DNA of 64,000 nt from Octopus sinensis (lineage: Eukaryota): positions 99,138,001 to 99,202,000 of the forward strand of contig NC_043002.1 in assembly GCF_006345805.1 (NCBI RefSeq), in the 5' to 3' direction. The notes beneath the pieces are model-generated. The model was not told the DNA's origin. It saw nothing but the letters and a program-made list of their open reading frames with translations, and did not search any database. A program made the position numbers and the translations under genes. Below, piece by piece: positions 5,288-61,119 of this stretch. The stretch's first letter is position 1. Every line of letters starts with the position of its first letter.

Positions 5288-5427
5288 TCACCTTATACTT
5301 AATTATCCTGTAGATATCCTATATAACCTCTCACAGTTGTCGGCACTGAACAGGCAAAGAAAAATATTTGAGTAACGGTATTGCATGATGAATAGATGAA
5401 ATCATTTTCGAACAAATAAAGCAACCA

Positions 5428-21266: not shown

Positions 21267-21313
21267 CCTGAGGACATGCATGTTTCTGGGTCTTAACCCG
21301 TCATCAGCCCAGG
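21267..21313 (-). ncRNA. Minimal type I hammerhead ribozyme
   Basis: cctggg-CTGATGA-c gggt taag accc a-GAAA-catgcatg-TC-ctcagg: 6-bp helix I, palindromic helix III ACATGCATGT, GUC cleavage triplet. Confidence 0.8.
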
Positions 21314-47237: not shown

Positions 47238-47445
47238 CTTTACGTGTTTCAGTAATTTGGCTGGGGCCATACTGGAGCACCGCCTTAAAGGGATTTAGTC
47301 GAAAAAATTGATCCTAGAACTCATTTTTGTTAAGCCTTACTGTTATTCTATCGGTCCCTTTAGCCGAACCGCTAAATTACGGGAACATAAACACACCAAC
47401 ATCGGTTGTCAAGCGGTGATAGGAGTATAAACACAGACGCACACA
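47238..47445 (-). mobile_element. SINE family A, 3' half
   Basis: tgtttcagtaatttggctggggccatactggagcaccgcc..gccgaaccgctaa. Confidence 0.75.
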
Positions 47446-47461
47446 CGTATATATATATTTA

Positions 47462-47510
<49 letters not shown>

Positions 47511-47511
<1 letters not shown>

Positions 47512-48368
47512 TATAAGAGAGCGACCACTATGTGGTCTACTCTAGCACTAAAAATAGATCCATTATTATTTTATTAATAGCGAAACAATTGTCCCGAACA
47601 AATTTGAATTTTTGTTATGTTCATTTACCCTGTCTGCGCCAGTAGTTGTGCTAATATTCACCGGATACATTTTTTATGTAGCTGAAGCCCAATGGATCTA
47701 TTTTTAGTGCTAGAGTAGACCACATAGTGGTCGCTCTCTTATATTTATATATAAAATGTATGAAAATCCGGGTTTCATATGCACTAAGCCACTAGGTGTT
47801 AAATGGATGTACTATTAAATTAGTATAAAAAAATTTCTCACCCTTATTGGTTGATTGTAACTATGCTACATTTAATTTTGGATGTAGTATCTGTTTCAGT
47901 GCGTGTTGGCGGGCTAAGACAGGGGCACTTAAACTATAGCAGCGAATGCAATTGGCTGAACCACACGTGCGTTTGTCGTGGTGGTGAAGTCTAGGGTGCG
48001 GTCGAGTTAATTGTATTCTGAATGGGTTCGGCTGAGGAGCTACAAATAAATGTATATTATGTGAGTAAAATTACATAATTTATTAATTTATTAATAGCGA
48101 AACAATTGTCCCGAACTAATTTGAATTTTTGTTATGTTTATTTGCCCTGTCTGCGCCAGTAGTTGTGCTAATATTCACCGGAGACATTTTTTTATGTGGC
48201 TGAAGCCCAATGGATCTATTTTTAGTGCTAGAGTAGACCACATAGTGGTCGCTCGCTTATATTTATATATAAAATGTATGAAAATCCGGGTATCATATGC
48301 ACTAAGCCACTAGGTGTTAAATGGATGTACTATTAAATTAGTATAAAAATGTCCCACCCTTATTGGTT
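47511..48368 (+). mobile_element. Retrozyme/Penelope-pLTR-like element: about 1.55 x 517-bp units plus a 5' inverted segment, within (TA)n
   Basis: GAAAcaattgtcccgaac at 47582 and 48099 (period 517); 47511-47564 is the reverse complement of about 47691-47744. Confidence 0.85.
48026..48116 (+). ncRNA. Minimal type I hammerhead ribozyme with a canonical core
   Basis: gttcgg-CTGAGGA-gcta..tagc-GAAA-caattg-TC-ccgaac: perfect 6-bp helix I, G10.1-C11.1 pair, palindromic helix III ACAATTGT, GUC. Confidence 0.9.
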
Positions 48369-48382
48369 TATATATATATATA

Positions 48383-48613
48383 TAATAATAATATTAGGGA
48401 ATAAATCCAAACTTACAAGGAAAAATTAGATTTAGGATTAAATCCAATTTTATAGTAAAAATATATTATATTATATTAAATTAGAGATAAAACCACTATT
48501 AGGCAAATCAATCAGTGAAAAACATAAGCCAATACATAAAATTAATTTAAAAATATAAAAGTTAAAAAAAAATTATTTAAATAATTTAAACTTATAAATT
48601 TTATGTATATACA

Positions 48614-59337: not shown

Positions 59338-59716
59338 GATATATATTATATAAATGGAATAAAAACGCAATAGAGGGTATTAAAACGTTCGGACAGATAG
59401 ATGATACAAAGGTGGACAAGAGAAACAACAATTAGAAGCACAGGTAAAAACGATGAATCTTCTTGGCTTCCTTCATCACTCAAGTCCCAAAAGTCACGAC
59501 CATTTCGGGCAGTTACGCTTGAGATGGATCGATCTGGTTACCTGCCAAAAACTCTAGGCTAAGAGCACTAGACTCGTTTGTAAGAAAGCTAGCGAATATG
59601 TACGGCAACAAAGACAAAAGGAAAATAAATAAACAAAAAGCGCAGAGTATGGTACACAATTACGAATACAAACAAGAAATAACAACAGGCGTCTTTCGAC
59701 TGAGAAAGAATCAAAT
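59122..59716 (-). repeat. Left arm of an inverted duplication of about 600 bp (right arm about 61400-61978)
   Basis: Reverse-complement match that includes the (TA)n tracts. Confidence 0.9.
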
Positions 59717-61098
59717 CGATGCTTGCTACAGGAGGACTGGTAACCATTACAATTTGTAGCGGCGAAAGGTCTGGACGTTGTTTTCTGAGGCTGACCAAAG
59801 AATTTTTATTTTTAGATATAAATGATGTACTCAAGTGTAGTTATGTTTTTAGCTTGTGCTTTTTCCATGATCATACGTGAGTATTTTATTTATATCCCAT
59901 CGAAATTTCTACTGAAGAAGGAATATATCTTTTTTTATAAGATTAAGTCCGAAATTGATTCATATAGATGATAACGAAATTTAAATTTTCTAAAGGTTAG
60001 TTGCCCGTTTTCAGTTTCAATTTTCCTGTAACAAGCGGATTATAAGTGGATAAAACAGTGTATTTGGCTTTAGAATAACCCTCTTTAGCCCTTAATTATA
60101 TGATGTATATTGCAACCGTAACGGTTTTTTTAAATATACTGCCCACGCTTCCTGATGAATTCCTTTGCTGTAGAGTAAGGGACTTCATCCTATATTGCTT
60201 AGCTAGTAAACTCGATGCTTGCTACAGGAGGACTGGTAACCATTACAATTTGTAGCGGCGAAAGGTCTGGACGTTGTTTTCTGAGGCTGACCAAAGAATT
60301 TTTATTTTTCAGATATAATGATGTACTCAAGTGTAGTTATGTTTTTACTTGTGCTTTTTCCATGATCATACGTGAGTATTTTATTTTATTTATATCCCAT
60401 CGAAATTTCTACTGAAGAAGAATATATCTTTTTTTATAAGATTAAGTCCGAAATTGATTCAATATAGAGATAACGAAATTTAAATTTTCTAAAGGTTAGT
60501 TGCCCGTTTTCAGTTTCAATTTTCCTGTAACAAGCGGATTATAAGTGGATAAAACAGTTGTATTTGGCTTTAGAATAACCCTCTTTAGCCCTTAATTATA
60601 TGATGTATATTGCAACCGTAACGGTTTTTTTAAATATACTGCCCACGCTTCCTGATGAATTCCTTTGCTGTAGAGTAAGGGACTTCATCCTATATTGCTT
60701 AGTAGTAAACTCGATGCTTGCTACAGGAGGACTGGTAACCATTACAATTTGTAGCGGCGAAAGGTCTGGACGTTGTTTTCTGAGGCTGACCAAAGAATTT
60801 TTATTTTTAGATATAAATGATGTACTCAAGTGTAGTTATGTTTTTAGCTTGTGCTTTTTCCATGATCATACGTGAGTATTTTATTTATATCCCATCGAAA
60901 TTTCTACTGAAGAAGGAATATATCTTTTTTTATAAGATTAAGTCCGAAATTGATTCAATATAGAGATAACGAAATTTAAATTTTCTAAAGGTTAGTTGCC
61001 CGTTTTCAGTTTCAATTTTCCTGTAACAAGCGGATTATAAGTGGATAAAACAGTGTATTTGGCTTTAGAATAACCCTCTTTAGCCCTTAATTATATGA
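59716..61098 (+). mobile_element. Tandem array of about 2.8 x 497-bp non-coding units, one hammerhead per unit (retrozyme-like)
   Basis: tcgatgcttgctacagg at 59716, 60212 and 60711; CTGAAGA at 59912, 60412 and 60907. Confidence 0.85.
60900..60967 (+). ncRNA. Type I hammerhead ribozyme (best of three tandem copies)
   Basis: atttcta-CTGAAGA-a gga..tcc-GAAA-ttgattcaa-TA-tagagat; near-palindromic helix III ATTGA-T-TCAAT, 7-bp helix I. Confidence 0.72.
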
Positions 61099-61119
61099 TA
61101 TATATATATATATATATGT

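Follow-up and report, generated by a model that had tools for sequence, protein, structure and literature searches.

A (TA)n microsatellite of Octopus sinensis (GCF_006345805.1, contig NC_043002.1) is interrupted by a hammerhead-bearing unit that is present more than once and is preceded by an inverted piece of itself, which raises the question of what kind of element this is, which enzyme copied it and from what form of RNA. We analysed the surrounding stretch of 64,000 nucleotides (positions 99,138,001 to 99,202,000 of the forward strand, hereafter the window) and searched the whole genome (2.72 Gb, 13,516 contigs). Our analysis suggests that the focal copy is a non-LTR retrozyme in (TA)n, copied by the reverse transcriptase (RT) and endonuclease of a Penelope-like element (PLE) from a probably circular monomer RNA (probability about 0.55). 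Mobilization by a PLE, whichever the template, is very probable; within it, a circle holds the larger share and an uncut linear multimer a smaller but considerable one. What we observed directly is the ribozyme motif with its covariation, the family, its two fixed 3′ ends, its TA targets and the presence of one haplotype on both arms of an insertion.

The focal feature belongs to a described class, the animal non-LTR retrozymes, to which it adds a long tail and two chimeras. The movement of animal retrozymes through circles, and the enzyme responsible for it, are proposed and undemonstrated in the work consulted on this class (PMC7229834; 10.64898/2026.07.22.740005).

Layout of the insertion and its hammerhead

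Units are numbered from the base after the predicted cut (u1 is window position 47594 in the first unit and 48111 in the second). The features, in window coordinates, are:

47448..47510, left (TA)n target microsatellite (the TA run reaches 47515)
47511..47564, minus strand, inverted arm, about u98-u157; outer end at the fixed site E1; 98.3% identical to 47691-47750
47565..47593, plus strand, start of the 5′-truncated direct arm, without CUGANGA: 3′ half of the hammerhead (3′ strand of helix II, GAAA at 47582-85, palindrome, GUC at 47591-93)
47594..48110, plus strand, one full monomer between successive cut sites: length 517 nt, GC content 36%, no coding capacity, branched fold conserved
48020..48122, plus strand, complete type I hammerhead, predicted cut after C48110
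48043..48094, plus strand, helix II extension of 52 nt: two stems and a terminal loop GUAAAA common to three subfamilies; its length varies
48111..48271, plus strand, second partial unit, ending at the fixed site E1 (about u160, UA-rich)
48272..48371, plus strand, “tail” of about 100 nt between E1 and E2; E2 (about u262) is the insertion end
48369..48384, right (TA)n target microsatellite

The direct repeat (47549-47855 against 48066-48371) is 93.8% identical over 308 nt at a spacing of 516-518, and the true start of the direct arm near 47565 gives about 1.55 head-to-tail units; the inverted arm (47505-47564) matches over 60 nt, 54 of them outside the TA run. These measurements confirm the initial annotation, which had described about 1.55 copies of a 517-bp unit preceded by an inverted 54-bp piece and bounded by (TA)n, and its claim that the unit lacks coding capacity is supported by a longest ATG ORF of 43 aa in the tripled unit. 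We found no PLE protein match within the 64-kb window and no LTR pair at the focal repeat; past the TA runs, both flanks (47343-47436 and 48400-48600) are very high-copy repeats of other families, and TSDs are unreadable in (TA)n. The two focal units carry 4-6 private substitutions per 280 nt each, split about evenly, as expected for the decay of once-identical units; the focal copy is therefore not among the youngest, and is an ordinary, ageing, slightly worn copy.

The hammerhead has a CUGANGA and GAAA core, an NUH site and three helices in type I order. Helix I is formed by GGTTCGG (48025-31) and CCGAACT (48111-17), which make 6 bp and an added G-U pair and have a distal extension; the core consists of CTGAGGA (48032-38; CUGAGGA in RNA) and GAAA (48099-102); helix II (48039-98) has a GCTA/TAGC stem (GCUA/UAGC) and the long AT-rich extension, with conserved internal loops; and GUC at 48108-10 is the predicted cleavage site. 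The perfect helix I, intact core, GUC site and helix II extended by about 50 AT-rich nt that had been read from this locus all hold. A hammerhead scan returned two motifs in the window, whereas 40 windows shuffled locally gave none, and the fold z-scores are −3.8 for the ribozyme and −4.8 for the monomer, whose fold beats 100/100 shuffles; an Rfam search gave no family at gathering score and none among its weak matches, and missed the hammerhead.

Helix III (48102-09) is palindromic, with 2 bp plus a tetraloop in the monomer and 8 bp in a dimer; the computed energies are −6.4 kcal/mol for the dimer duplex vs. +2.4 kcal/mol for the monomer hairpin, and the active monomer fold is predicted to lie about 3 kcal/mol above the free ensemble (P ~0.007). 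The whole ribozyme is found only in the second focal unit, the first retaining its 3′ half (47582-47599). Release of the focal monomer would therefore need the downstream core to cut at C47593 as well, through the palindrome, a reaction that is predicted from the fold models. With one whole ribozyme, the focal locus falls short of the two complete motifs expected of an active locus in 10.64898/2026.07.22.740005.

A dispersed family with two fixed ends

The 16-mer ribozyme core has 1,994 exact matches in the genome, and its reversed control has none; searching with the unit yielded 1,207 candidates, and 40 of these were scored. This dispersed family comprises three subfamilies, with reference monomers of 517 nt (A, the focal subfamily), 505 nt (B, 82% identical to A) and 534 nt (C, 72% identical to A), and includes hundreds of dispersed young copies. 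Most copies of C share 98-100% identity, and their arrays reach 17 units; the longest arrays in the sampled loci have 1.7 units for A and 2.5 units for B. Judged by the likeness of its copies, subfamily C is much younger than the focal copy. The proposal that the focal hammerhead is the best candidate for an active ribozyme consequently stands within the window, which holds one other hammerhead, and does not extend to the genome, where the focal copy counts as decayed and the 534-nt subfamily as younger. More diverged copies (87% identical to C: L191 2920-4334; L164, L171), one with an apparent unit near 490 nt, point to further subfamilies.

No RNA record came up for the focal stretch. Assembled contigs of runs whose RNA type is guessed overlap parts of the focal unit in two runs, at depths that are not an expression measure. 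Contigs of runs guessed as RNA span most of the 534-nt monomer in four runs from three studies, with neighbouring common repeats deeper, and one “goes back” joint occurs in a single such contig; neither this coverage nor the joint is taken as evidence of expression or of circles. A Pol III (SINE) reading was rejected by eye on internal T runs and the absence of a box B in the young subfamily. We found no publication on this octopus family, which paper supplements and Repbase may list.

Across 16 aligned ribozymes, 95.6% of 450 cells are paired, compared with 30-38% in slid controls, and 5 of 29 pairs changed on both sides (four in helix I, one in helix II), which amounts to a handful of independent events because the aligned sequences are related. 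Double changes also occur in 13 of 143 predicted pairs of the whole monomer, whose branched fold is retained. Position 7 is the sole core position with all four bases (G, A, U or C) and is also a frequent array-level variant in subfamily C, and the three reference monomers are identical at 16/16 positions of the GAAAC..GUC strand. One could regard the hammerhead as a functionless relic that is passively carried: U4C, which reduces hammerhead activity in vitro (PMC3088659), is present in 8 of 11 focal-subfamily copies (the focal copy itself has U4), the active monomer fold is disfavoured as given above, and 8 of 9 Xenopus retrozyme dimers were uncleaved in vitro (10.64898/2026.07.22.740005). 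We consider this very improbable: between subfamilies that are 72% alike, helices I and II show compensatory changes and the core is kept except at position 7, which suggests that the RNA is under selection.

To locate the insertion ends, we mapped 113 loci: 83 non-redundant ones and 30 further ones, picked by their order on contig C1 among the first 100 places with a 16-mer core match. Overlapping re-fetches of one locus and near-identical duplicates were dropped before the counts (for example L004/L005, replaced by L131; L064, L102 and L186; and L194-L202 in the pooled end count), and where a block is duplicated (L131, L138, L181) it entered the counts once. Only loci with the ribozyme or a near-full unit were chosen, so the sample of short copies is biased.

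Two fixed sites separated by about 100 nt, E1 (about u160) and E2 (u262-266), account for most outer ends: among 173 ends, 75 are at E1 (u150-172), 84 at E2 (u254-271) and 14 elsewhere, so that 159/173 are at one site or the other, with windows that were chosen after the first loci were inspected and are wide because BLAST runs into TA. A TA run of at least 8 nt adjoins 153 of the 173 ends. Neither site occurs twice in a locus whose ends could both be classified: 50 of 60 two-armed loci combine E1 with E2, none combines E1 with E1 or E2 with E2, and the remaining 10 contain an end left unclassified; taken separately, the 30 later loci give E1 with E2 in 14 of 15 two-armed loci. The two arms usually join with an overlap of 0-5 bases. 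As to whether other copies are circularly permuted, which the initial annotation had asked, they are not freely so: their variation lies in the 5′ junctions alone, and two fixed sites account for the 3′ ends.

The partial tandem with an inverted copy, the tail at one end and the AT-rich target are the marks of a PLE-type insertion, and together with the end counts they support the Penelope-type architecture that had been recognized at the focal locus. The E1/E2 ends are the footprint of a Penelope “tail” three times longer than usual: about 100 nt here, compared with 30-40 nt published for PLEs (PMC8557442) and about 14, 31 and 50 nt in other families of this genome. Like EN+ PLEs and their non-autonomous derivatives (PMC8557442, PMC4209133, PMC11167929), the family has partial tandems, an inverted 5′-truncated copy, a tail at one end only and a (TA)n bias with no visible TSD; the 3′ end is likewise preceded by a hammerhead whose helix III is palindromic, and RT would start at two internal sites. 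Unlike EN+ PLEs, this unit contains no ORF; moreover, the base of its helix II is the canonical G10.1-C11.1, without the extra nucleotide of minimal PLE hammerheads.

The family also resembles animal non-LTR retrozymes (PMC7229834; 10.64898/2026.07.22.740005): one type I hammerhead per unit with a 2-bp helix III and a tetraloop; a non-coding, highly self-paired unit of under 50% GC, with no LTR organisation, that co-occurs with PLEs; and a range from monomers to long head-to-tail arrays. The unit length of 505-534 nt is above the 170-400 nt of PMC7229834 and within the 51-972 bp of 10.64898/2026.07.22.740005. Differences are the helix II extension of 38-52 nt and, as far as the accessible descriptions of animal non-LTR retrozymes go, the fixed two-site ends, inverted arms and (TA)n targeting, which we found for this family and not in those descriptions.

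Penelope-like elements as the probable source of the copying enzyme

The unit might instead have begun as the pLTR or 3′ terminus of a coding PLE and since been orphaned, with the arrays as satellite expansions at the DNA level. Xenopus retrozymes are homologous to pLTRs, and local amplification has been proposed for them (10.64898/2026.07.22.740005); some arrays here show local unit duplication, and the L131 block is duplicated in tandem. We found no pLTR homology for this unit: comparison with 20 GIY-YIG loci, 20 longer PLE stretches and three hammerhead-bearing 3′ ends gave only AT-rich words, the comparison covering two coding families out of the many in the genome. The sequence that precedes the ribozyme is in every case a continuation of the same unit and never an ORF. 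The initial annotation would have been overturned had all other copies been attached to a coding PLE as an ordinary pLTR, and this is not what we see: of the 40 stretches whose flanks are widest, none has a PLE ORF contiguous upstream of the unit and 4 contain PLE ORF fragments; these, like the fragments in a few of the first 60 loci, always lie apart from the unit or past its 3′ end. Given that arrays end at E1 or E2 in (TA)n with inverted arms, they entered by retrotransposition; this, together with hundreds of dispersed young copies, makes an orphaned pLTR with satellite expansion improbable.

A PLE-mobilised retrozyme, on the other hand, accords with what is known of the enzyme. [quoted passage not shown] E1 and E2 fit this mechanism of two internal start sites, as there are two fixed ends and their spacing is the tail.

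On our proposal, the hammerhead would cut multimeric transcripts, as a monomer or through the 8-bp palindromic helix III of a dimer, and the monomers would be ligated into circles, in which the weak helix III would keep the ribozyme mostly off. PLE protein, probably as a dimer, would then nick both strands of (TA)n, and both 3′ ends would prime on one RNA at the internal sites E1 (u160) and E2 (u262-266). Each cDNA would extend over a variable distance, past the ligation point if long enough, and the cDNAs would be joined through a few bases of microhomology to give back-to-back arms; at the focal locus, the E2 arm would have given 1.55 units and the E1 arm about 60 nt. In L1 twin priming, two target strands prime on one RNA and the cDNAs join by microhomology, producing an inversion. 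The priming of both strands on one RNA, the microhomology join and the inversion are alike in the two systems; here, however, the two priming sites are internal ones at fixed positions, poly(A) is absent, and both arms can be multi-unit and overlap in sequence. We found no publication on Penelope or twin priming that describes a strict exclusivity of two ends. Fold-back second-strand synthesis was rejected as the source of the inverted arm, the inner ends of the arms rarely coinciding.

Which PLE could have supplied the protein? The genome contains ORFs of 781 and 775 aa with RT and GIY-YIG domains; the elements of both families end in (TA)n and have, by eye, hammerhead variants with palindromic helix III in the 3′ UTR. 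Copies are 98-100% identical in the 781-aa family and 93-97% in the 775-aa family, from which we infer that, by age, the former suits subfamily C and the latter suits A. Neither tail length nor homology singles out a helper: the tails are about 50 nt (781-aa family, one locus) and about 31 nt (775-aa family, two loci; 30 loci examined) vs. about 100 nt, and the unit resembles PLE loci and 3′ UTRs only in AT-rich words. The hammerhead in the 3′ UTR of the young 781-aa PLE appears by eye to be a U3-A8 core variant (L081, ~5350-5390), a variant described in PMC4209133. A U4/C4 core polymorphism occurs both in the focal subfamily and in the hammerhead of the 775-aa PLE (3′ UTR in L086 and L091).

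Two hybrid insertions hint at the copying enzyme. L131 carries an A unit, with 97.7% identity to the focal one, that passes at u308 into 664 nt of 3′ UTR from the 775-aa family. This 3′ UTR piece forms the right end of the insertion, and the left end is an inverted arm that stops at E2; two copies of the block stand in tandem, and they are the junction's only two matches. L054 fuses a B unit at u96, with a short palindrome at the join, to the 3′ end of a third hammerhead family. Both chimeras would most simply be read as a template switch in one reverse-transcription event; they could also be deletions between neighbouring insertions. We found no publication on retrozyme-PLE chimeras. The third hammerhead family (L086, minus strand, 586-660; 3,046 candidates) has a 54-nt helix II, a palindromic helix III, a length of at least 870 nt and a tail of about 14 nt. 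L054 (at 1719) and L131 (at 3909), independent rearranged loci, are both broken at u308, possibly a pause site of the reverse transcriptase.

A more specific scenario, which we advance tentatively and hold to be rather unlikely as a whole, is that a PLE dimer primes both nicked strands on one monomer circle at two structure-defined sites 100 nt apart and copies round repeatedly in both arms, and that L131 records a template switch from helper 3′ UTR RNA to retrozyme RNA, which would identify the 775-aa PLE as the focal subfamily's helper. If true, it would provide direct genomic evidence for the circular intermediate and the helper that have been proposed for animal retrozymes. The genome also offers a test pair, a very young retrozyme subfamily alongside intact, young PLE ORFs, whose value lies in exact predicted RT start sites and in a tail too long for protein geometry alone.

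Possible circular and multimeric RNA templates

That the focal insertion originated from a more-than-unit RNA template, as the initial annotation had held, is supported. The 5′ junctions are scattered over the unit: of 176, 7 fall no more than 10 nt from the cut, where 6.8 are expected, so there is no pile-up. End-to-end jumping on cleaved linear monomers was rejected on this ground, and the template should be either a circle or an uncut multimer. Each insertion event used one template: among the 35 C loci with two arms, 66 sites have a variant fixed in both arms, no site has one fixed in a single arm and 13 are mixed; 16 of the 35 loci are informative, and many of the 66 sites mark one sub-lineage and not independent events. 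Arrays carry array-wide haplotypes. Variants repeated in only some units (L194, L185, L135) indicate that some arrays were also lengthened by local duplication.

The main competitor of the circle, and a serious though less probable one, keeps the same element and PLE enzyme and takes as template a linear multimer that is transcribed from an existing array and stays uncut; in that case the hammerhead would act late, only with protein, or only for circles that are not the transposition substrate. For a PLE, insertion persists when the hammerhead is mutated, most of the RNA is unprocessed and none of the RNA reads stops at the cut (PMC11167929), so that the missing pile-up can be explained without a circle. 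In L140, moreover, one variant lies in register in both arms and is absent from neighbouring units, which favours a heterogeneous multimer over a pure monomer circle, and the exclusivity of E1 and E2 fits a protein dimer bound at one unit. However, arrays of up to 17 units would hold many dimer-competent ribozymes, and a ribozyme under selection should cut multimers, yet 211 cut sites are traversed in 83 loci, with five stops nearby; nor did we see, by eye, an ordered series of variants common to arrays. In coral, mussel and axolotl, furthermore, retrozyme RNA occurs mainly as circles (PMC7229834). The traversed cut sites and the form of other animal retrozymes modestly favour the circle.

Two further repeats of the window should be recorded. 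A 496-bp unit at 59716-61105 is present in 2.8 tandem copies that are 97% alike, near TA runs, and has no hammerhead by strict scan. The second type I hammerhead of the window (21267-21313, minus strand) has CUGAUGA, a palindromic helix III, a site at 21273 and a short helix II with flanking single bases, and is likely the end of another PLE-type element.
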